64,000 bases of DNA from Candidatus Limnocylindrales bacterium (lineage in GTDB: Bacteria; Chloroflexota; Limnocylindria; Limnocylindrales; CSP1-4). The stretch spans positions 54,072 to 118,071 of the forward strand of contig JBBQLI010000001.1 of NCBI GenBank assembly GCA_038327765.1, given 5' to 3'. The position numbers were made by a program, and so were the translations under genes. Positions 43,853 to 56,832 of this stretch are shown here, in pieces (the stretch's first letter is position 1; each line of letters starts with the position of its first letter). The notes beneath the pieces were generated by a model that was given only the letters and a program-made list of their open reading frames with translations, was not told the origin of the DNA and did no database searches.

Positions 43853-44023
43853 CTACATGGTCGGGACGTGGTCCGCTGAGAGGAACGAATCGGGGTCGTC
43901 CTTGAAGTCCAGCAGGCAGCCCTTGCCGCAGAACCAGTAGGTGGTCCCGTCGTACTCGAACGAGAGGTCGGACGTGTCCGTATCGACCTCCATCCCGCAG
44001 ACCGGATCGATCGCGATCGCCAT
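43853..44023 (-). CDS. YHS/TRASH-domain small metal-binding protein (56 aa), absent from the ORF track
   Basis: Translation MAIAIDPVCGMEVDTDTSDLSFEYDGTTYWFCGKGCLLDFKDDPDSFLSADHVPTM shows the DPVCGM...YWFCG.GC YHS signature. AAGGAGG lies 7 nt upstream of the ATG. Confidence 0.7.
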   Translation of the reverse strand: MAIAIDPVCGMEVDTDTSDLSFEYDGTTYWFCGKGCLLDFKDDPDSFLSADHVPTM

Positions 44024-44109: not shown

Positions 44110-44454
44110 ATGGACGCCATCGACGTCAGCGCAGCACGCTCCACGCTTCGCGCCGAGCGCGATCGACTCCGAATCGACCTGGGCGAGGCGATCGTCGCGC
44201 CCGGGCAGATGACCTACGGCTCGCAGGCGGCGGCCGCCAGCCAGGTCTTCGCCCAGCAGCGCGATCTCGCCCTGCGCGACCGGACCATCGCGCTGCTCTC
44301 GCTCGTCGACGAGGCGCTCGAGCGCCTGGACGCCGGGACCTTCGGGGCGTGTACGCGCTGCGGGAGACCGATCGCTCCGGCCCGGCTCGAGGCCTTGCCG
44401 TGGGCGGCCACCTGCATCGAATGCCAGCGCATCCGCGACCGGGGCGACCGGTGA
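44110..44454 (+). CDS. DksA/TraR-family C4-type zinc-finger protein
   Basis: C-terminal CTRCGRPI...CIECQ four-Cys finger after a coiled region. Confidence 0.6.
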   Translation: MDAIDVSAARSTLRAERDRLRIDLGEAIVAPGQMTYGSQAAAASQVFAQQRDLALRDRTIALLSLVDEALERLDAGTFGACTRCGRPIAPARLEALPWAATCIECQRIRDRGDR

Positions 44455-45452
44455 CGGACGACGACGCGCCGCTGGTCACCCTCGCGGACATCCGGGCCGC
44501 CGCCGAGCGTCTGCGCGGCATCGCGATCCGGTCGCCGCTGGTGCCGTTCGGCCGGCCGGAGTCGCGCCGGTTACTCAAGGCGGAGTCGCTCCAGCCGATC
44601 GGTGCATTCAAGCTCCGGGGCGCCTATGCGCTGATCTCGACCCTCGGCGAGGCCGAACGACGGGCCGGGGTCATCACGTATTCGTCGGGCAATCACGCCC
44701 AGGGCGTGGCCCGCGCCGCGCGCCTGCTGGGGATCCCAGCCGTGGTCGTGATGCCGAGCGATGCACCGACCATCAAGCGTGACCGGGTGGTCGCCGACGG
44801 CGCCGAGCTGATCGTGGTGGGAACGGCGTCGGATGAGCGCCAGCGGGTCGCGGAGCGGGTCGCGGCGGAACGCGGGCTCATCGTGGTCCCGCCCTACGAC
44901 GACGACCGGATCATCGCCGGTCAGGGCTCGATCGGGATCGAGCTTGTGGAGGACGTGCCCGACCTCGCCGCCGTGCTCGTGCCGATCGGTGGGGGCGGCC
45001 TGGCCAGCGGGATCGCGACGGCGATCAAGGCGCTCCGCCCGGAGGTCCGGGTCATCGGCGTCGAACCCGACCTTGCGGCCGATGCCCGCGACTCGCTCGC
45101 GGCCGGTTCGATCGTGCGCTGGCCGGCCGAACAGGTGTCGCGGACGATCGCCGACGGCACACGCAGCCAGGCCATCGGGCGGCGGACGTTCGCCCACCTT
45201 CGTGCGTATCTCGATGGGATCGTGACCGTCAGCGAGGCGGAGATCGCGGCGGGTGTCCGGCTTGCGGCCGAGGAAAGCCGACTGGTGGTGGAGCCGTCGG
45301 GGGCGCTGTCCGTGGCAGCCCTGGCATTCCGTGCCGGGGAACTCGGGCTGGACCGGCTGGACGGGTCGGTGGTGGCCGTCGTCAGCGGTGGCAACGTGGA
45401 CCCCGAACGCTACCTGGCATTCCTGTCCGCGCCGATCCCCGAACGCGGCTAG
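44451..45452 (+). CDS. threonine/serine dehydratase (PLP-dependent, fold type II)
   Basis: PLP-Lys motif QPIGAFKLRGA and glycine loop GGGGL. The GTG start overlaps the previous stop (GTGA). Confidence 0.85.
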   Translation: MTDDDAPLVTLADIRAAAERLRGIAIRSPLVPFGRPESRRLLKAESLQPIGAFKLRGAYALISTLGEAERRAGVITYSSGNHAQGVARAARLLGIPAVVVMPSDAPTIKRDRVVADGAELIVVGTASDERQRVAERVAAERGLIVVPPYDDDRIIAGQGSIGIELVEDVPDLAAVLVPIGGGGLASGIATAIKALRPEVRVIGVEPDLAADARDSLAAGSIVRWPAEQVSRTIADGTRSQAIGRRTFAHLRAYLDGIVTVSEAEIAAGVRLAAEESRLVVEPSGALSVAALAFRAGELGLDRLDGSVVAVVSGGNVDPERYLAFLSAPIPERG

Positions 45453-45464
45453 CGCCGCGCTGGC

Positions 45465-46514
45465 CTAGGTCCCGGGGTCGCCGCGCTCCTGCGCGAGTCG
45501 TTCGGCCAGGCGCTGCTCTCGGATCCGGATCTCGGCGAGCTGGACCGCAGCCCGGCGGTCGTTCCGTCCGGAGTCGCGTTCCTCGGACCGGAACCAGCCG
45601 CGGACCACGAGCATGATCGAGGCGATGAAGATCACGTCGCCCACGATCCACATGAGTCCGGCAGCGAGCCGCTGATCATCGAGCGGCGAGAGACCCCATG
45701 ACCGCACCACCGTCGCGTAGTGCACGTACAGCACGCTCTCGACGTTGATCATGACGAACGCGAGGAACGTGTTCTGGGTCATCTGCATGAAGATGTGGAC
45801 GGCCCGGACCGGGTGGGCCATCCGCCAGGGCGACGGATCAAGTGCGATGGCCGGCCACCAGAACAGGAGCGCAGCGGTCAGGAACAGGGCGTGTTCCAGA
45901 TCGTGGAGGAACGGGTCCTCGAGGGTGGCGTTGAACAGGGGCGAGAAATGCGCGGCCCACAGGACCGCCGCCAGGAAGAGCCAGCCCACCACCGGGAATG
46001 ACAGCACGCGCATCACGCGCGAGTGGAGGACGGGCAGGATCCAGTGCTGACGCGTCTGATGCGAGGCGACGCGCAGCAGCAGCGTCACGGGTGCTGACAG
46101 CGCGATCAGCGGTGCGGCGACCAGGATCAGCAGGATGTGCTGGACCATATGCACCGAGAACAGGGTCGTGTCATAGCGGTCGATGCCGGACATCAGGGCG
46201 ATCGCGATGGCGACCTGTCCGCCCACGAAGGTCCACGTCCGGCGCGGCGGGACGGGGTGATCAGGGTGGACCGCGTTCACCCGTCGGACCGCCCAACGCC
46301 ACCACAGGAGGGCGGCCACGATCCCGAGCGTCGGGAATGGTTCGAACGACCAGCCGAACAGCAGGTTCAGGACGGTCGGTGGATCCAGCGGACCGATCGA
46401 CGGCGCGGTCGCCGAGGCGGCCGCCACCGACCCGGCACCGGCCACGAGGCGGAGCGCGGCCAGACCGCCGATGAGCAGGGGGACGGGGGCCGGACGAGCG
46501 CGCATCGGCGGCAT
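45465..46514 (-). CDS. ctaG: cytochrome c oxidase assembly factor CtaG (Caa3_CtaG family) membrane protein
   Basis: Polytopic protein with conserved His-containing helices (HMVQHILL, HDLEHALF). Divergent from ctaC. Confidence 0.7.
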   Translation of the reverse strand: MPPMRARPAPVPLLIGGLAALRLVAGAGSVAAASATAPSIGPLDPPTVLNLLFGWSFEPFPTLGIVAALLWWRWAVRRVNAVHPDHPVPPRRTWTFVGGQVAIAIALMSGIDRYDTTLFSVHMVQHILLILVAAPLIALSAPVTLLLRVASHQTRQHWILPVLHSRVMRVLSFPVVGWLFLAAVLWAAHFSPLFNATLEDPFLHDLEHALFLTAALLFWWPAIALDPSPWRMAHPVRAVHIFMQMTQNTFLAFVMINVESVLYVHYATVVRSWGLSPLDDQRLAAGLMWIVGDVIFIASIMLVVRGWFRSEERDSGRNDRRAAVQLAEIRIREQRLAERLAQERGDPGT

Positions 46515-46704: not shown

Positions 46705-47901
46705 ATGTCGAGCACCCAAGGCGCCCGCCGCTCCGGCTCCACCGCGCTCGTGGTGGTGCTCGTCCTCGCCGTGGTCGGAGTGGTCCTGGCCATCGTCACG
46801 GGCGCCGGCGCACGGGTCGTCGAGAGCCTCTACCCGCCGGTCGCGGTCACGACCCAGGGCGCGGAGATCCGCAACCTCTACACCATCGTCTTCATCATCG
46901 CCGTCGCGATCTTCTTCCTCGTCGAAGGACTGATCGTGTGGACCGTCATCCGTTATCGCCGCCAGCCCGGCGACGACACGCTGCCGCCCCAGATCCACGG
47001 CAACAACATCGCCGAGGTCACCTGGACCGTCGTGCCCACGCTCATCGTCGCGTTCCTGTTCGTGATCTCGTGGCAGACGCTCAATAGCGTCGACGCCACC
47101 ACCACGACGCCCGACACGAAGATCCGCGCGGTCGCGGGGCAGTTCCAGTGGACGTTCGACTACATGCCCGCCAACTACGACCCCGACACGGCCGCTGGCA
47201 AGGACATCGCGCCCCTGTTCACGCAGTACTCCCCCATCGGTGCGGATGGCGGCCTTGACGTCCCGACCGGGCGCACCATCCAGCTTTACCTGACCAGCCC
47301 CGACGTGATCCACGCGTTCTACGTCCCGCAGTTCCTGTTCAAGCGCGACGTCGTGCCGGGTCGGGTCAACCGCTTCGATTTCAATGTCGACGAGAGCTAT
47401 GCCGGGGGGACGTTCCGGGGGCAGTGCGCGGAACTGTGCGGGACCGGGCATCGCCTGATGCTGTTCGAGGTCCACGCCCTGAAGGGGCCCGACTTCGATG
47501 CGTGGCTCGCCAAGCAGGTCGCTGCTGCGGTCGCCACCCCGGCGCCATCCGCCTCCGCGGGTCCGCCGGCCTCTCCCGGCGCCAGCGGCCAGGTCCCGAG
47601 CGGCGCGCCGGCCGCGGGCACGGAGCTGCACATCTCGGCGACCAACATCGCGTTCGATCAGACGGCGCTCAGCGCGCCGGCGAACAGCCCGATCACCATC
47701 GACTTCGAGAACAAGGACGCGGGGACCCCGCACGACATCAAGATCTTCAAGGACAGCATCGGCGGTACTGTCGTGTATGACGGCAAGATCTTTCCCGGTG
47801 TCGCCACCCAGCAGTACCTGGTCGGCCCGTTGGCGGCCGGGACCTATCCCTTCGAGTGCTTCGTCCATCCGAACATGACCGGCACGTTGACGGTCCAGTA
47901 A
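46705..47901 (+). CDS. ctaC: cytochrome c oxidase subunit II with a C-terminal fused type-1 copper (cupredoxin) domain
   Basis: Two TM helices, then the CuA site (H...CAELCGTGHRLM). A Pro/Ala/Ser linker follows. A roughly 95-aa domain carries PHD, then FECFVHPNMTG (His-Cys-His-Met). Confidence 0.85.
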   Translation: MSSTQGARRSGSTALVVVLVLAVVGVVLAIVTGAGARVVESLYPPVAVTTQGAEIRNLYTIVFIIAVAIFFLVEGLIVWTVIRYRRQPGDDTLPPQIHGNNIAEVTWTVVPTLIVAFLFVISWQTLNSVDATTTTPDTKIRAVAGQFQWTFDYMPANYDPDTAAGKDIAPLFTQYSPIGADGGLDVPTGRTIQLYLTSPDVIHAFYVPQFLFKRDVVPGRVNRFDFNVDESYAGGTFRGQCAELCGTGHRLMLFEVHALKGPDFDAWLAKQVAAAVATPAPSASAGPPASPGASGQVPSGAPAAGTELHISATNIAFDQTALSAPANSPITIDFENKDAGTPHDIKIFKDSIGGTVVYDGKIFPGVATQQYLVGPLAAGTYPFECFVHPNMTGTLTVQ

Positions 47902-47909
47902 GGAGCCCG

Positions 47910-49538
47910 ATGGCAACGACCACGTTGACGCCGGCAGCCACGTCGTACCGCAGCGGCCTGTACGACTGGATCACCACGACCGATCACAAGAAGATCGGGA
48001 TCCTGTACATCATCAACTCGTTCCTGTTCTTTTTCATCGGCGGCACGCTGGCGCTCGGTGTCCGGACGGAACTGGCCCAGCCCGGTCTGCAGTTCCTGAC
48101 CGAGGCGGGCTACAACGAAGCCTTCACGATGCACGCCACGTTCATGATCTTCCTGTTCGTGATCCCGATGCTGGCGGGCTTCGGCAACTACATCGTGCCG
48201 CTCCAGATCGGCGCACCGGACATGGCCTTCCCGCGCATCAACGCCCTGTCGCTGTGGATGCTCCCGCTGGCCGGGGTCCTGCTGCTGTCGGGCTTCTTCA
48301 CGGGTGGGACCGCGGCGGCCGGCTGGACCAGCTACAGCCCGCTGGCCCAGGACAGACCGTTGGCGGCGGTCGGCTCGGGCGAGGACCTGTGGATCGTGGC
48401 CATCATCCTGATCGGGACCAGCTCGATCCTTGGCGCGATCAACTTCCTGGTCACGATCTTCAAGATGCGCGCCCCGGGGATGACCCTCTTCCGGATGCCG
48501 ATCATGGTCTGGACCGTGCTCGTCACCTCGGTCCTGGTGCTCATGGCCACGCCGGTCATCACCAGCGCCCTGATCATGCTGTTCATCGATCGCAACTACG
48601 GCGGGTCGTTCTTCGACCCCAGGGTGGGCGGCGATCCGATCCTCTACCAGAACATCTTCTGGTTCTACTCGCACCCGGCGGTCTACGTGATGATCCTGCC
48701 CGCGATGGGCATGGTCAGCGAGATCCTGCCGGTCTTCAGCCGAAAGCCGCTATTCGGCTACAAGGCGTTCATCTTCGCGACGGCCGGCATCGGCGCCCTG
48801 GGCTTCTCGGTCTGGGCGCACCACATGTTCACGACCGGCGCGGTCTACCTGCCGTTCTTCAGTCTCATGACGTTCCTGATCGCCGTCCCCACCGGCGTGA
48901 AGATGTTCAACTGGATCTTCACGATGTGGCGCGGGCAGCTGATGCTCAAGACGCCGTTGTTGTTCGTGCTCGGGTTCCTGTCGATGTTCCTCATCGGCGG
49001 CATCAACGGCGCCTTCAGCGCCAGCGTCCCGGTCGACTTCGCCCTGCACGACACCTACTGGGTGGTCGCGCACCTGCATTACGTCCTGTTCGGCGGGTCC
49101 GTGTTCGGGATCATGGGCGGCTTCTACTACTGGTTCCCCAAGATGACCGGCCGCATGCTCAATGAGACCGTCGGCAAGATCCAGTTCGTGCTGATGTTCA
49201 TCGGGTTCAACCTGACGTTCTTCCCGATGCATGAGCTGGGCCTGGCCGGCATGCCGCGTCGCATCGCCGACTACGCCTCGGCCGCGGGCTGGAACGACCT
49301 GAACCTCGTGGCCACGATCGGCGGCTTCACGATCGCTGCATCGATGCTGCCGCTGCTCTGGAACGTCTTTGCCTCGCTGCGCAACGGCACGATCGCCGGC
49401 GACGACCCGTGGGAGGGCAATACACTCGAATGGGCGACGAGCTCGCCGCCGCCCGCCTACAACTTCGACCACCTGCCGGAGATCCGCTCGGAGCGCCCGG
49501 TCTTCGATCTCCGTCACGGCACCACCCACGGGCACTGA
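47910..49538 (+). CDS. ctaD: cytochrome c oxidase subunit I
   Basis: 542 aa with heme-a/CuB ligands (WFFGHPEVY-like, [17 protein letters not shown]). AGGAG upstream. Confidence 0.95.
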
Positions 49539-49545
49539 GCGACCC

Positions 49546-50205
49546 ATGACGAGCGACGCGCACGCCCTCACCACCACCGTCGACCACGGCGCCGACGCTG
49601 GCGCCCACGACACTCGCGGCGGCATCAGCAACCCCGTCCTCGGGATGTTGCTGTTCATCACCTCCGAGGTGATGTTCTTCTCCGGCCTGTTCGCGGCCTA
49701 CTTCAGCGTCCGGGCCAACGCCCCGCAGTGGCCGCCCGTCAATCCGCAGACCCAGGAGCTGTTCCACGTGGACATGTTCCCGCTGGTACTGCCGGCCACG
49801 ATCCTGCTGGTGATCAGCTCCTTCACGTGCCAGTTCGCGGTCTGGGCGATCCGCCGCGACGACCGGACGGCGTTCCTCCGCAACATGACCGTCACCGTGG
49901 TCATCGGGGCGATCTTCCTGATCATGCAGGCCACGGACTATTCCATCCTCGGCTCGGAGGGCGTCACGCTCTCGTCCGGGACGTTCGGGACCACGTACTT
50001 CACGCTCACCGGGTTCCACGGCGCGCACGTCTTCGGTGGCGTGATCATGCTCTCGGTGGTGCTCTATCGCGGGCTCGCCGGCCAGTTCTCGGCGAAGCAC
50101 CACGATGCGATCGAGGCAGCCTCGCTGTACTGGCACTTCGTGGACGTGGTCTGGATCCTGCTGTTCTCGCTTCTCTACCTCCTCCCTGGCAACGCGCCGC
50201 ACTAG
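49546..50205 (+). CDS. ctaE: cytochrome c oxidase subunit III
   Basis: Five-TM CoxIII fold (TGFHGAHV). Confidence 0.9.
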
Positions 50206-50216
50206 GAGCAGTGGCC

Positions 50217-50423
50217 ATGGACGAACCCATCAAGCATCCGATCAAGAACCCGCGCCGGGTCTTCCTCATCGCGGCGGCCTTCCTGTTCATCGCGCTGGTC
50301 TTCTGGGGCGTTCCCACGCTCGGACACTGGCACGTGGACTACGCGGGGACCACGATGCTGGTCGCCCTCGCGATCGCGATGAGCCTGATGGCGTATGTGC
50401 TCATCGCCGGGTCGCGCGAGTGA
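50217..50423 (+). CDS. small 2-TM protein, probable cytochrome oxidase subunit IV-like (CtaF N-terminal-half-like)
   Basis: 68 aa with two TM helices. AGGAG upstream. Positioned as the fourth gene of the cta operon. Confidence 0.55.
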   Translation: MDEPIKHPIKNPRRVFLIAAAFLFIALVFWGVPTLGHWHVDYAGTTMLVALAIAMSLMAYVLIAGSRE

Positions 50424-50464
50424 CGGACGCGACGCGCGACGCGCGCGACTGACCCGGGCGCCCG

Positions 50465-51571
50465 ATGCTGGAGCAGATCTGGAACTGGTTCCTGGAGCAG
50501 ACCGCGCTGCTCGTGACCCCCGACTGGGGTTCGATCATCGCGCTGTTGCCGGTCGGGGTGATGGCCCTGGTCCTCGTCTGGCTGTTCCTGACCTTCCGCC
50601 GCTTCCGCGCCCAACCGCCGGCTCGTCGGGGCAAGCAGCGCATCGAACCGAGGACGCCCGCCGGGATCCACATGCCCGGACCGTCGTTCTCGCCCGTCTT
50701 CGCGGCCATCGGCGCGGCGCTGCTGCTGTTCGGCCTCGTCTACGGGGGCTGGGTCCTCGTCCTCGGCGGCATCGCACTGGTGCTGAGCCTGCTCTACTGG
50801 CTGGCTGAGGGGCTGCGCACCTACGACCGCGATACCGGATCCACCGCGCTGGCCCTCCCGGCTACGGTCCACGATGGCCCGCCGCCCGGCGTGCACATGC
50901 CGGGACCATCGTTCCGGCCGTTCGTCGGAGCCGTGGGGATGATGATCCTGATGTTCGGGCTGGTGTACGGCGGCTGGCTGCTCCTGGCCGGCGTGCTGTC
51001 CCTGGTCTTCACGCTGGTGGGCTGGCTGGTGGATGCGGTCGGGGAATACGGACAGGTCGCCAGGGCCGACACGACCGGGCACCTGGAGAACCTGCCCGCC
51101 CCGCGAACACCGTCGCTGCTGCTGAGCGTGCTGGCGGTCCTCTTCGTCGGCGGCGTCCTGCTCCAGACCGGGATCCTGCCCCCGAAGTCGGGCAGCGTCT
51201 CGGCCGTGACGCCCGGCGGGTCCGCGGCGCCATCGGGGGTGTCATCCTCGGCCAAGCCGGCCGGTTCCTCGACCCCCGCCGCGTCAGCCGCGACCGGGGA
51301 CGTCTCCATCACGGCCCAGGGCGTGGCCTTCCTCGATACGGCCGTCAGCGGCCCTGCCGGCAAGCCGTTCACGATCGCCTTCAGCAACCAGGATGCCGGA
51401 ACCGCCCACGATGTCGACATCAAGGACGCGTCCGGCGGTGACCTGTTCAAGGGCGAGATCTTCCCGGGAGTGGCGACGAAGGTCTACGCCGTGCCCGCCA
51501 TCCCCGCGGGTACCTACACGTTCGTCTGCTTCGTGCACCCGAACATGACGGGCTCGATCACGCTCAAGTAA
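50465..51571 (+). CDS. membrane protein with duplicated HMPGPSF-motif two-TM modules and a C-terminal type-1 copper (cupredoxin) domain
   Basis: IHMPGPSFSPV...LVYGGW and VHMPGPSFRPF...LVYGGW repeats. C-terminal FVCFVHPNMTGSITLK is nearly identical to the ligand loop in the ctaC fusion. Confidence 0.7.
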   Translation: MLEQIWNWFLEQTALLVTPDWGSIIALLPVGVMALVLVWLFLTFRRFRAQPPARRGKQRIEPRTPAGIHMPGPSFSPVFAAIGAALLLFGLVYGGWVLVLGGIALVLSLLYWLAEGLRTYDRDTGSTALALPATVHDGPPPGVHMPGPSFRPFVGAVGMMILMFGLVYGGWLLLAGVLSLVFTLVGWLVDAVGEYGQVARADTTGHLENLPAPRTPSLLLSVLAVLFVGGVLLQTGILPPKSGSVSAVTPGGSAAPSGVSSSAKPAGSSTPAASAATGDVSITAQGVAFLDTAVSGPAGKPFTIAFSNQDAGTAHDVDIKDASGGDLFKGEIFPGVATKVYAVPAIPAGTYTFVCFVHPNMTGSITLK

Positions 51572-51640: not shown

Positions 51641-52108
51641 GTGCTGGTGCTCATCGCCGGTGCCGCTCGTCACCCAGACACGGCACAGATCGCGGTCGGC
51701 CAGCCGGCGCCAGCGGTCGTCGGCACCACCCTCGATGGGTCGAGCGCCGACTTGTCGACGCTGCGCGGGCATCCGGTCCTCGTCAACTTCTGGGGGCCGT
51801 CGTGCGTCCCGTGCCGCCAGGAATTCCCGCTGCTGAACCAGAAGCTCCAGCAGCACGCAGCCGACGGGCTGGTCGTGCTGGGGATCCTGACCGACGACCC
51901 GGTGCAGGGTGCTCGGGACTTCACCGCGCAATTCGGCGGGACCTGGCAGACCGTCATCGACCCGGACAAGGCGATCAAGGACGCGTACCGGGTGGCGGCT
52001 CGGCCACAGAGCTACTTCATCGACGGAAGTGGCGTGTTGCGCTCGATCCAGATCGGGTACCTGACCGACGTCGACTTCGAGCGCCAGTACGCGAAGATCG
52101 CACCGTGA
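51641..52108 (+). CDS. tlpA: TlpA/ResA-like thiol-disulfide oxidoreductase
   Basis: WGPSCVPC thioredoxin motif. The in-frame upstream sequence encodes a TM anchor but has no ATG/GTG/TTG before 51641. Confidence 0.75.
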   Translation: MLVLIAGAARHPDTAQIAVGQPAPAVVGTTLDGSSADLSTLRGHPVLVNFWGPSCVPCRQEFPLLNQKLQQHAADGLVVLGILTDDPVQGARDFTAQFGGTWQTVIDPDKAIKDAYRVAARPQSYFIDGSGVLRSIQIGYLTDVDFERQYAKIAP

Positions 52109-53076
52109 CCACGGCGGCCGTCTCGATCCACGGGCTCGTCAAGCGCTACGGCGCACGCACGATCCTCGACGACGTCTCGCTCACGATCGAGCCCGGACAG
52201 ATCGTGGCGCTGCTGGGTCCGAATGGCGCGGGGAAGACGACCACCGTGGAGATCGTCGAAGGCTACCGACGTGGCGACGCCGGGGTGGTCCGGGTGCTCG
52301 GCGAGGATCCGGTCGGAGGCGGTCGCGCGTTGCGAGCGCGGGTGGGCCTGATGCTCCAGGGCGGCGGGATCGACATGCGCGCCCGACCGCGCGAAACGCT
52401 GGTCCAGTACGGGCGGTTCCATGACGAGCCGCGCGATGCCGACGAACTGCTGGACCTCGTGGGACTGACCGGCCCGCTCGCGACGACGCGCTATCGCCGA
52501 CTCTCCGGCGGCGAGAAGCAGCGGCTCGGACTGGCGCTGGCGCTGGTCGGACGCCCCGAGGTGGTCATCCTCGACGAACCGACGGCCGGGATGGACCCCG
52601 AGGCCCGTGCGACGACTCGCCGGATCATCACGGGCTTGCGCGACGGGGGCGCGGCGGTCCTCCTGACAAGCCACGACCTGACCGATGTCGAACGCGTGGC
52701 CGATCGGATCGTCGTGCTCCACGGCGGACGGATCGTGGCCGCCGGCTCCGCGACCCAGCTGATGAGCGGTGTCCGGCCGTCCGTGCGGTTCCGTCTGGAT
52801 GGTCCGCTCAGCGCGGCGGAGGCCGCGTCGCTGGGGTCGGCCGTGGGCGGCAGGGTCGTGGATGCCGACGATGGCGGGTACCGGCTGGAGGATGTGGCGC
52901 CGACGCCTGTGATCGTCTCCGCGGTCGCGACCTGGTCCGCGGCGAACGGCCGGATGCTGGCCGATATCCGGACCGTGGGCGGGACGCTCGAGGAGGCCTA
53001 CCTCGAACTGGTCGGCACGGGCGCCGACGGCGATCCCGTCGATCCCGTCGAGCCCGCCGGGACGGGCGCGCCGTGA
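52105..53076 (+). CDS. ABC transporter ATP-binding protein (ABC-2/DrrA-like)
   Basis: GPNGAGKTT, LSGGEKQRL and ILDEPT motifs. GTGA overlap with tlpA. Confidence 0.85.
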   Translation: MTTAAVSIHGLVKRYGARTILDDVSLTIEPGQIVALLGPNGAGKTTTVEIVEGYRRGDAGVVRVLGEDPVGGGRALRARVGLMLQGGGIDMRARPRETLVQYGRFHDEPRDADELLDLVGLTGPLATTRYRRLSGGEKQRLGLALALVGRPEVVILDEPTAGMDPEARATTRRIITGLRDGGAAVLLTSHDLTDVERVADRIVVLHGGRIVAAGSATQLMSGVRPSVRFRLDGPLSAAEAASLGSAVGGRVVDADDGGYRLEDVAPTPVIVSAVATWSAANGRMLADIRTVGGTLEEAYLELVGTGADGDPVDPVEPAGTGAP

Positions 53077-53825
53077 GCGGGCCTGCCAGCCTCCTGACCG
53101 CGATCCGGGCGCAGACGGCCATGGAGCTGCGGCTGACCGCGCGGCGCGGCGAGAACCTGCTGGCGCTGGTCGGGATCCCGATCATCGTCCTGCTCTTCTT
53201 CGGCTCGGTCGACGTCATCCCCGTGCCGGCCGGCTCCACGCGGATCGGGATCCTGTTGCCGGGCACGCTGGCGCTCGCGATCCTGGCCGCGGGGCTGGTC
53301 AACCTTGGGATCGCGACGGCCTACGAACGGTCCTATGGCGTGCTCAAGCGGCTGGGTGGATCCCCGCTGGGACGGACCGGGCTGGTCGCCGCGAAGGTCG
53401 TCACGATCGTCATCGTCGAGATCGTCATGGTCGGGGCGCTGGTCGTCCTGGCAACGCTGGTGTTCGGGTGGAGGGCGGGACCGGGCGGTTCGGTCGTTGG
53501 GTTCGTGGGGGCGGTCCTGCTCGGGACCGCGGCGTTCGTCGGGCTCGGTCTGGCACTCGCGGGCACGCTGCGCGCGGAGGCGACGCTGACCCTCGCGAAC
53601 GTGCTATTCCTGCTGTCGATGCTGCTGGGCGGGGTCATCGTGCCGCACGACCAGCTGCCCGGGCCGATCGCCGCGCTCGCGGGTGCCCTGCCGGCGGCGG
53701 CCCTCGCCGACGCGTTCCGCTCCGCGTTGGGTGGCGGCGGCGAGCTCCTGCAGCCGCTCGCCGTGGTGACGGTCTGGGCGGTTGCCGCGATCGGGTTCAC
53801 CGTGCGCACGTTCCGCTGGGAGTAG
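53073..53825 (+). CDS. ABC-2 family transporter permease
   Basis: 6-TM permease, coupled to the upstream ATPase (GTGA overlap). Confidence 0.8.
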   Translation: MSGPASLLTAIRAQTAMELRLTARRGENLLALVGIPIIVLLFFGSVDVIPVPAGSTRIGILLPGTLALAILAAGLVNLGIATAYERSYGVLKRLGGSPLGRTGLVAAKVVTIVIVEIVMVGALVVLATLVFGWRAGPGGSVVGFVGAVLLGTAAFVGLGLALAGTLRAEATLTLANVLFLLSMLLGGVIVPHDQLPGPIAALAGALPAAALADAFRSALGGGGELLQPLAVVTVWAVAAIGFTVRTFRWE

Positions 53826-53936: not shown

Positions 53937-54500
53937 GTGGACCAGCGACGGTACGTCGAACGGGCGCAGCAAGGCGATCATGACGCCTTCGCGGTGCTTG
54001 CCGGCGCGGCCATCGCACGCCTAGACACCGCCGCCCGGCTGATCCTCCGCGACCGCGAACTCGCACGTGATGCGGTCCAGGAGGCACTCGTCCGCGCCTG
54101 GCGTGACCTGCCCCGACTGCGTGATCCGGAACGGTTCGACGCCTGGCTCCATCGACTCACCGTGCACGCCTGCATCGATGCCGTGCGCCACCGGCGCCGC
54201 CGACCGATCGAAGTGGTACTGACCACCTTCGACCCGCCGCTGGCGCGCGACTTCGCCTCCGACATCGTCGATCGAGATCGACTCGACCGTGCGCTCCGGG
54301 CGCTCGAACCCGAATGGCGCGCGATCGTCGTCCTCCACTACTACCTGGGGATGCCGCTGCCGGACGTGGCCGGCACCCTCGGGATCCCCCTCGGCACGGC
54401 GAAGTCGCGCCTGCATCGGTCCCTCGGGTTGCTTCGCGCAGCCGTCGAGGACGACACGGGCGGCGGCACCGGATCGCTCAAGGAAGGGCAGTACGCATGA
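53937..54500 (+). CDS. ECF-type RNA polymerase sigma-70 factor
   Basis: Region 2 (DAVQEALVRAWR, FDAWLHRLTVHACID) and region 4 (LPDVAGTLGIPLGTAKSRLHR). Confidence 0.85.
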   Translation: MDQRRYVERAQQGDHDAFAVLAGAAIARLDTAARLILRDRELARDAVQEALVRAWRDLPRLRDPERFDAWLHRLTVHACIDAVRHRRRRPIEVVLTTFDPPLARDFASDIVDRDRLDRALRALEPEWRAIVVLHYYLGMPLPDVAGTLGIPLGTAKSRLHRSLGLLRAAVEDDTGGGTGSLKEGQYA

Positions 54501-56092: not shown

Positions 56093-56389
56093 ATGGTGGA
56101 CGATCGGGGTCTCGTCGAACGAGCGCAGGACGGCGATCACGACGCCTTCGCGGTGCTCGTGGATCGGCGTCTGCCACGGCTCGACGCCGCGGCGCGCCTG
56201 ATCCCGCGCGACTCGGACCTCGCTCGCGACGCGATCCAGGAGACCCTCATCCGCGCCTGACGCGATCTCCCGGCGCTCCGCGAGCCAGATCGGTTCGATG
56301 CGTGGGTGCATCGCCTCACGGTCAACGCGTGTCTCGACCTCGCCCGGCGTCGTCGGCGACGACCGATCGGGAGCATGCACTTCAGGTAG
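56093..56389 (+). pseudogene. truncated, nonsense-containing duplicate of the 5' third of the ECF sigma gene, including its promoter-like upstream sequence
   Basis: Aligns to 53937-54260 (MVDDRGLVERAQDGDHDAFAVL... vs MDQRRYVERAQQGDHDAFAVL...). TGA at 56258 replaces the Trp codon of the VRAW motif. Homology ends after RRRRRPI; region 4 is absent. Confidence 0.6.
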
Positions 56390-56757: not shown

Positions 56758-56832
56758 TGGTTGCGGGGACTGGATTCGAACCAGTGACCTTCGGGTTATG
56801 AGCCCGACGAGCTGCCGCTGCTCCACCCCGCC
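56758..56832 (-). tRNA. tRNA-Met (anticodon CAT), initiator-type features, CCA encoded
   Basis: GGCGGGGTGGAGCAGCGGCAGCTCGTCGGGCTCATAACCCGAAGGTCACTGGTTCGAATCCAGTCCCCGCAACCA. Three consecutive G-C pairs in the anticodon stem. A 1:72 mismatch (G1/A72). Near-identical to E. coli tRNA-fMet from memory. Confidence 0.85.

Follow-up and report, generated by a model that had tools for sequence, protein, structure and literature searches.

Which protein supplies the helices missing from a shortened subunit III, and through which redox domain electrons enter the enzyme, are the questions raised by a cytochrome oxidase operon of Candidatus Limnocylindrales bacterium (GCA_038327765.1, contig JBBQLI010000001.1). 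The window analyzed here is a stretch of 64,000 nucleotides (nt) of this contig. It carries the oxidase genes ctaC, ctaD and ctaE, followed by two genes encoding proteins of 68 and 368 amino acids, named p68 and p368 below. The p368 protein contains two tandem copies of a transmembrane (TM) hairpin and ends in a blue-copper domain (cupredoxin). We consider it likely that p368 is an integral oxidase subunit that completes a split subunit III and carries a tethered blue-copper domain for electron entry.

Tandem hairpins of p368 and their relatives

The first-pass annotation of this DNA had described two tandem copies of G-[IV]-HMPGPSF-x-P, each with a TM hairpin, in the 368-residue open reading frame (ORF), and this description was borne out at the positions given there. 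The HMPGPSF motifs were located at residues 69 and 144, and FGLVYGGW and a hairpin followed each of them. The two units (residues 65-120 and 140-195) were 52% identical over 56 residues (pairwise blastp E 1e-23), confirming the duplication. The GC content at third codon positions (GC3) of p368 was 0.91, as in genuine genes of this window, whose overall GC content is ~70%.

An AlphaFold2 model of p368 was built on 52 sequences, with a mean predicted local distance difference test score (pLDDT) of 71. Hydropathy and this model placed TM helices at residues 21-49, 76-93, 96-124, 151-168, 170-204 and about 217-235. The three loops that bear the motifs contained 7, 2 and 2 Lys and Arg residues, with one more Arg ending TM1, and the N-terminal tail and the hairpin turns contained none. 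By the positive-inside rule, this distribution predicts an N-terminus outside the cell, HMPGPSF loops in the cytoplasm and a cupredoxin outside.

The whole protein matched the Pfam family of CtaF, Cyt_c_ox_IV (PF12270), in two stretches with 47.9 bits, above the gathering cut-off of 26.9. Each repeat alone matched the C-terminal half of the profile and scored just under the threshold (repeat 1, 24.2 bits, positions 80-125; repeat 2, 24.6 bits, positions 81-124). CtaF of Mycobacterium smegmatis, used as a control, scored 170 bits over positions 1-131. The CtaF-like character proposed earlier was therefore upheld. Residues 1-125 of p368 reached 36.4 bits over positions 30-125, and ~12 bits were gained by aligning residues 20-55 to profile positions 30-55. 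However, a hidden Markov model (HMM) of the N-terminal region of p368 gave no signal on the N-terminal half of CtaF, and this alignment of TM1 of p368 to TM2 of CtaF is thus not independently supported.

All PDB sequences were searched by phmmer using a single sequence and a 41-sequence profile. Repeat 2 (residues 143-194) aligned to residues 9-65 of subunit III from Rhodobacter sphaeroides (1M56 chain C), with E values of 0.0047 for the single sequence and 6e-4 for the profile. These residues form the N-terminal TM1-TM2 hairpin of the canonical 7-TM subunit III (COX3). The alignment paired vHMPGPSFRPF with YHILPPSIWPF, and GWLVDAVGE with GWWSDVVTE. Mouse COX3 also matched repeat 2 (E 0.04), and the N-terminus of R. 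sphaeroides COX3 itself matched Cyt_c_ox_IV weakly (12 bits, E 0.21). In actinobacteria, CtaE and CtaF jointly form subunit III and CtaF gives the equivalents of TM1-2 (reviewed in PMC8361435), and the match of the repeat to TM1-2 of COX3 agrees with this assignment. More exactly than a CtaF unit, the repeat module is the split-off TM1-2 hairpin of subunit III. It represents an intermediate sequence between actinobacterial CtaF and the N-terminus of COX3. The p368 protein is related to a part of COX3, namely the N-terminal 56 residues of individual chains, and is not a member of COX3.

More than 1178 homologues of p368 were detected in a collection of 5.8 billion proteins, and nearly all of them contained both PF13473 and PF12270. 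All named sources were metagenome-assembled genomes (MAGs) of Candidatus Limnocylindrales or Chloroflexota. A scan of one genome per species gave 80 loci with p368 at 42-67% identity; apart from L065, whose MAG is labelled Gaiellaceae, all came from Chloroflexota/Limnocylindria MAGs. When the TM part was searched exhaustively against 1.84 billion cluster representatives, only 392 clusters were retrieved, among them members of ~37% identity with HLPGPSxWP motifs.

In 41 intact orthologues the motif residues were invariant, comprising G67-I68-H69-M70-P71-G72-P73-S74-P77 in repeat 1 and P139-P140-G142-H144-P146-P148-S149-R151-P152 in repeat 2, a degree of conservation well above what chance would give. 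The pattern W187..D190...E194-Y195......D202..G205-H206 behind the second hairpin was invariant in the same set; we take this segment to resemble the 'GHHT' segment of COX3. Two repeats were present in every intact member, and the repeats grouped by type in 105 of 109 units, repeat 1 as HMPGPSFAP and repeat 2 as H-[MIV]-P-[GP]-P-S-[FWY]-R-P. The duplication is therefore older than the diversification of the family, and selection acts on both copies.

Three apparent single-repeat variants were rejected. L073 contained a run of masked N, and in L042 and L056 Thr replaced Ser in the motif. Chimeric ctaE/p68/p368 translations were observed in frameshifted database proteins (P0136, P0218, P0220, P0149 and P0208) and in loci from long-read MAGs (L065-L079). 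Such chimeras, joining ctaE, p68 and p368, could pass for genuine fusions.

The first-pass annotation had also likened p68 to the N-terminal half of CtaF, so that the subunit would appear to be split. The p68 gene was located between ctaE and p368 in 77 of the 80 related loci, with the consensus MHPLRHPRNAA...VDYAGTTML...AYVLVAGS, and ORFs of 60-71 residues occupied its position in divergent loci. In the window it is preceded by an AGGAG motif ~10 nt upstream of the start. The 15 database homologues of p68 (61-68 residues) all lacked Pfam domains, p68 alone gave no Pfam match, and a PDB search with it returned chance matches only. At the start of TM2, p68 has V-D-Y-A-G-T-T and CtaF has V-E-W-A-G-T-T, sharing the pattern V-[DE]-[YW]-A-G-[TV]-T. 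An artificial chimera of p68, a loop and repeat 1 scored 39.7 bits against PF12270 over positions 3-125, a gain of ~15 bits over the repeat alone. An HMM of p68 aligned colinearly with the N-terminal half of CtaF from Mycobacterium tuberculosis (14.7 bits, equalled by 0-2 of 500 shuffles) and from M. smegmatis (8.4 bits, equalled by 2-9 of 500 shuffles), and gave 0.2 bits on CtaF of Corynebacterium glutamicum. A comparison by hhalign of p68 with the CtaF N-terminal half gave a P value of 0.0047. The split is plausible but not established: the shared pattern, the chimera and the HMM and hhalign signals are weak but agree in suggesting it, and the Pfam alignment, in which TM1 of p368 itself is matched to CtaF TM2, speaks against it.

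Cupredoxins and operon setting

The C-terminal domain of p368 matched the Pfam family Cupredoxin_1 (PF13473) above its cut-off of 27 bits (Table 1) and was closest to amicyanin (PDB profile E 1.6e-10). In the AlphaFold2 model, residues 280-367 formed a confident beta-sandwich (pLDDT >90), and its top Foldseek neighbours were amicyanin and the membrane-tethered auracyanins of Chloroflexi (E ~1e-7). NCBIfam models gave nothing for p368 and p68 except a weak amicyanin match. The family match, the amicyanin profile, the model and the structural neighbours agree on the fusion to a blue-copper domain noted earlier. The loop is of the amicyanin type (C-x2-H-x2-M). The ligand residues H315, C355, H358 and M361 were invariant in the 41 orthologues, and H358 was nearly invariant in the 52-sequence set. 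By these sequence features the domain is a type-1 (T1) copper cupredoxin and is predicted to bind copper. The tether in front of it varied from about 28 to 51 residues across orthologues.

A second cupredoxin was found on CtaC, which has a normal CuA site (CAELCGTGHRLM) and then a T1 cupredoxin (47611-47898) behind an A/P/S/G-rich tether. The two cupredoxins are paralogous (~50% identity), and p368-type and CtaC-type domains grouped by type in 54 of 56 cases. The CtaC domain was present in 44 of 62 CtaC ORFs. In at least seven lineages (L006, L008, L009, L018, L051, L055 and L075) it was absent and CtaC ended in a tail of only 37-45 residues. The cupredoxin of p368 was kept in every intact full-length orthologue examined.

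CtaC, CtaD and CtaE obtained their highest scores with NCBI actinobacterial aa3 models, the top NCBIfam models being aa3_CtaE_Actin for CtaE, and cyt_aa3_Actin and CtaD_CoxA for CtaD. The CtaE protein covered only positions 77-255 of the 258 positions of the COX3 Pfam profile. CtaD showed no C-terminal TM extension, its tail beyond residue 491 having no hydrophobic segment. Since CtaE lacks TM1-2 of COX3 and CtaD lacks C-terminal helices, only the hairpins of p368 come into question within this operon as the helices missing from subunit III. No c-type cytochromes, Rieske proteins or CxxCH genes were detected in the window, and no cytochrome c domain on CtaC.

The gene order ctaG(-) | ctaC ctaD ctaE p68 p368 trx ABC ABC was kept in essentially all 80 loci, trx being the gene of a thiol-disulfide oxidoreductase and ABC the genes of an ATP-binding cassette exporter. 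The order ctaC-D-E-p68-p368 was also found in L081-L083. Two members of ~37% identity were checked on their contigs and had the same operon, with a CtaA-CtaB fusion before it. Both similarity to a subunit IV family and synteny with cta genes were therefore present, the latter in close and distant relatives. Positions of the operon genes and of the parts of p368 are given in Table 1.

Table 1. Oxidase operon genes and p368 segments, by position in the window
Feature	Position	Strand	Remarks
ctaG, Caa3_CtaG assembly factor	45465..46514	-	226 bits; transcribed divergently; syntenic in related loci
ctaC, subunit II	about 46705..47901	+	COX2_TM, COX2, C-terminal Cupredoxin_1
ctaD, subunit I	47856..49538	+	COX1 544 bits; likely start 47907
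ctaE, 5-TM subunit III without TM1-2	about 49546..50205	+	COX3
p68, 68 residues, two TM helices	50217..50423	+	ORF and TM prediction
p368, 368 residues, six TM helices and cupredoxin	50465..51571	+	Cyt_c_ox_IV 47.9 bits, Cupredoxin_1 33.8 bits
p368: amphipathic N-terminal helix (2-17), invariant P19-D20-W21, TM1 (21-49)	50468..50611	+	N-terminus predicted outside the cell
p368: repeat 1 (65-120), G-I-HMPGPSF-S-P and TM2-TM3 hairpin	50657..50824	+	Cyt_c_ox_IV 80-125, 24.2 bits alone
p368: repeat 2 (140-195), G-V-HMPGPSF-R-P and TM4-TM5 hairpin	50882..51049	+	Cyt_c_ox_IV 81-124, 24.6 bits alone; COX3 alignment
p368: invariant cytoplasmic motif W187..D190...E194-Y195......D202..G205-H206, after hairpin 2	51023..51082	+	
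p368: TM6 (217-238), chain back to outer face	51113..51178	+	hydropathy, AlphaFold2 model
p368: flexible Ser/Ala/Gly/Pro-rich tether (239-278)	51179..51298	+	pLDDT <50 for residues 240-274
p368: type-1 copper cupredoxin (279-368)	51299..51571	+	ligands H315, C355, H358, M361
trx, ResA/TlpA-like thiol-disulfide oxidoreductase	51641..52108	+	directly downstream of p368 in every related locus

The trx gene and a DrrAB-like ABC-2 exporter (ATPase and permease) occupied 51641-53825 and were located 3' of p368 in essentially all of L001-L083, including the ~37%-identical members. The thioredoxin may have a role in the reduction of CuA or T1 copper cysteines. The ABC pair is a generic DrrAB-like exporter, and no oxidase role is claimed for it. 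In divergent relatives, a fused haem A synthase/haem O synthase gene (COX15-CtaA and UbiA, 602-634 residues) was located before ctaG (L081:1623-3431 and L082:1393-3297). In the window this slot holds a pyridoxal phosphate-dependent enzyme (44349-45452). A 56-residue YHS-domain protein (57.8 bits; 43853-44023, minus strand) was encoded ~1.4 kb upstream of ctaG; this domain is often tied to copper handling. Farther downstream, an extracytoplasmic function (ECF) sigma factor gene (53937-54500) has a truncated copy of its N-terminal 91 residues at 56096-56368 (plus strand), 70% identical and with an in-frame stop. This copy is probably a pseudogene fragment and adjoins a tRNA-Met gene (56758-56832, minus strand).

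Role of p368 and alternative explanations

In our proposal, an actinobacterial-type aa3 haem-copper oxidase contains p368 as an integral membrane subunit, probably along with p68. The TM1-2 helices of subunit III missing from CtaE would be supplied in trans by p368, as they are by actinobacterial CtaF, with the unit present twice in tandem. The sixth helix would bring the chain to the outer face, where a disordered tether of ~40 residues would hold the amicyanin-like copper domain. This domain is most likely a built-in carrier that would receive electrons from a quinol-oxidising complex and hand them on to the CuA site of CtaC, directly or via the paralogous cupredoxin tethered to CtaC. It would correspond, with copper in place of haem, to the cytochrome c fused to caa3 oxidases. 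The homology, the duplication, the conserved ligands, the predicted topology and the synteny are direct results of the analysis, whereas the physical membership of p368 in the complex, its transfer of electrons and the choice of hairpin for the canonical subunit III position are inferred. The second hairpin may offer an additional contact surface, perhaps to a partner complex.

Several results weigh against this proposal. The packing of the p368 helices was modelled with moderate confidence only (pLDDT ~65-88; predicted template modelling score, pTM, 0.35). Pfam COX3 (PF00510) did not match the p368 repeats at E<=10, mycobacterial CtaF chains were absent from the match list of the PDB profile search, and hhalign of p368 against CtaF was weak (P 8e-4 to 4e-3, probability <25%). 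The proposal leaves the need for two hairpins unexplained, and an electron donor, either a bc complex or alternative complex III (ACIII), is not encoded in the window.

An unlikely explanation is that p368 is a membrane-anchored mobile blue-copper carrier similar to auracyanin or halocyanin, and not a stable oxidase subunit, the CtaF-like helices being no more than a polytopic anchor. The long and disordered tether, the membrane-tethered auracyanins among the structures nearest to the soluble domain, and the JGI (Joint Genome Institute) label 'plastocyanin' would fit such a carrier. However, known carriers need only a single helix or a lipid, while p368 keeps six helices and invariant cytoplasmic motifs homologous to a part of subunit III. 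In addition, CtaE lacks exactly those helices and the p368 gene is always found within the cta operon. We give still less weight to a role of p368 mainly in maintenance or assembly of the oxidase copper centres, either as a stabiliser like AcoP or in copper delivery with CtaG and the TlpA/ResA-like thioredoxin. AcoP is a precedent (PMC4059628), and genes of CtaG and the thioredoxin flank the operon in all loci. On the other hand, the amicyanin-type loop and the full His-Cys-His-Met set, which does not vary, are the signature of an electron-transfer T1 site, and the paralogous C-terminal domain of CtaC sits at the position of cytochrome c in caa3 oxidases. Maintenance and electron-carrier roles are not mutually exclusive. 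There is next to no chance that an artefact of assembly or annotation produced the repeat, or that the gene is decaying. Many related MAGs are error-prone long-read assemblies with frameshifted chimeras (P0136, P0218 and P0220), and L073 seemingly had a single repeat. This explanation is already refuted by the masked N in L073 and by the 41 intact orthologues from independent assemblies, in which both repeats have type-specific signatures; the GC3 value also speaks against it.

A further explanation extends the proposal that p368 is an oxidase subunit, and is the leading candidate for why the hairpin was duplicated. Together with p68, the duplicated hairpin might form a docking surface for a quinol-oxidising complex in an obligate supercomplex of the III-IV type, with the two tethered cupredoxins replacing the di-haem QcrC wire known from actinobacteria; we regard this as a tentative possibility. 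The contacts of III2-IV in M. smegmatis are made via CtaE and CtaF (PMC8361435), CtaC, CtaD and CtaE scored best against actinobacterial aa3 models, and neither a cytochrome c domain on CtaC nor a CxxCH gene was found in the window. However, neither the window nor the fetched flanks contained complex III or ACIII genes, and the argument is one of analogy. If extended to the lineage, Limnocylindria and related Chloroflexota might possess a cytochrome-c-independent, all-copper electron entry with two tethered domains, in which the hairpin and p68 dock the quinol-oxidising partner, as a copper-wired analogue of III2IV2. This wider picture is speculative, and we hold it to be rather doubtful.

In this family the TM1-2 hairpin of subunit III is seen as a movable and duplicable module that may bear the electron donor too. 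Subunit III and its split forms (CtaE with CtaF) govern oxidase stability, proton uptake and supercomplex contacts. Limnocylindria are uncultured and abundant in soils and lakes, so that tethered copper carriers of their terminal oxidase may stand in for cytochrome c in a substantial part of aerobic respiration in the environment.

Comparison with known systems

The architecture had not been recognised as a described one in the first-pass annotation. No description of Limnocylindria oxidases with such a protein, or of fusions between CtaF/subunit IV and a cupredoxin, was found in the searchable literature, which is in agreement with this view. However, standard models recognise both domains of p368, and automatic annotation has already placed the pair on more than 1000 proteins. 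The source labels of these homologues are 'plastocyanin', 'cupredoxin domain-containing protein', 'cytochrome c oxidase subunit 4' and 'aa3-type cytochrome oxidase subunit IV', so that some are labelled as subunit IV. What is new is a duplicated, cupredoxin-fused CtaF/subunit III fragment in a known enzyme, every member being from an uncultured bacterium, and not a new kind of system.

The closest system is actinobacterial CtaF (PF12270), with structures from M. smegmatis, M. tuberculosis and C. glutamicum (6ADQ, 6HWH, 8HCR and 7Q21). Like p368, it is encoded among cta genes, and it provides a motif and a TM hairpin for helices absent from a 5-TM CtaE, as p368 is proposed to do. However, CtaF (~140 residues) consists of four TM helices with a single hairpin and lacks a soluble domain, whereas p368 has two hairpins, an extra C-terminal TM helix and a T1 cupredoxin on a tether. 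The motif of p368 is H-x-P-x-P-S-x-x-P, as in COX3, and that of mycobacterial CtaF is F-x-P-H-S-x-W-P. In Limnocylindria, the TM1-2 half of CtaF may be a separate gene, p68. A metagenomic protein of 413 residues (P0263, L084:565-1806) contained two complete 4-TM CtaF units in tandem and no cupredoxin; it matched Cyt_c_ox_IV in two stretches (66.8 bits) and carried the motifs HLPPPSWMP and HLPGPSWWP. It appears to be an independent duplication of a whole CtaF.

Canonical COX3 shares with p368 an H-x-x-P-P-S-x-W-P motif, two helices and then W-x-D-x-x-x-E, and its N-terminus lies in the cytoplasm, as predicted for the HMPGPSF loops. In COX3 the hairpin is single and covalently joined to TM3-7, whereas p368 has two hairpins on a separate protein. 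The bo3/aa3 quinol oxidases contain a relocated TM1-2 hairpin of subunit III as the C-terminal TM13-14 of subunit I (CyoB/QoxB). There the hairpin is single, fused to subunit I and without a redox domain, and the CtaD of this operon has no such extension.

In caa3-type oxidases, cytochrome c is fused to the C-terminus of subunit II (Thermus thermophilus, 2YEV). The CtaC described here resembles them in that an additional redox domain occupies the corresponding place, and would be a copper counterpart. However, the haem c domain is packed on CuA in caa3 oxidases, while the T1 cupredoxin of CtaC is on a long flexible tether, and a second copy of the carrier is located on p368, which is derived from subunit III. 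Blue-copper proteins that feed or bind terminal oxidases include halocyanin and the sulfocyanin of SoxM (PMC3062577). Another is AcoP, a cupredoxin anchored in the membrane and encoded in an oxidase gene cluster, which binds the oxidase tightly and maintains its activity (PMC4059628). Sulfocyanin (SoxE, in the SoxM supercomplex), halocyanin, AcoP and auracyanin are similar to p368 in that they are cupredoxins held at the membrane and feed or stabilise a haem-copper oxidase; some of them are encoded in the oxidase cluster. They differ from it in that each is a protein of its own, anchored by one helix or by a lipid, and none is fused to a module of the subunit III/CtaF type.

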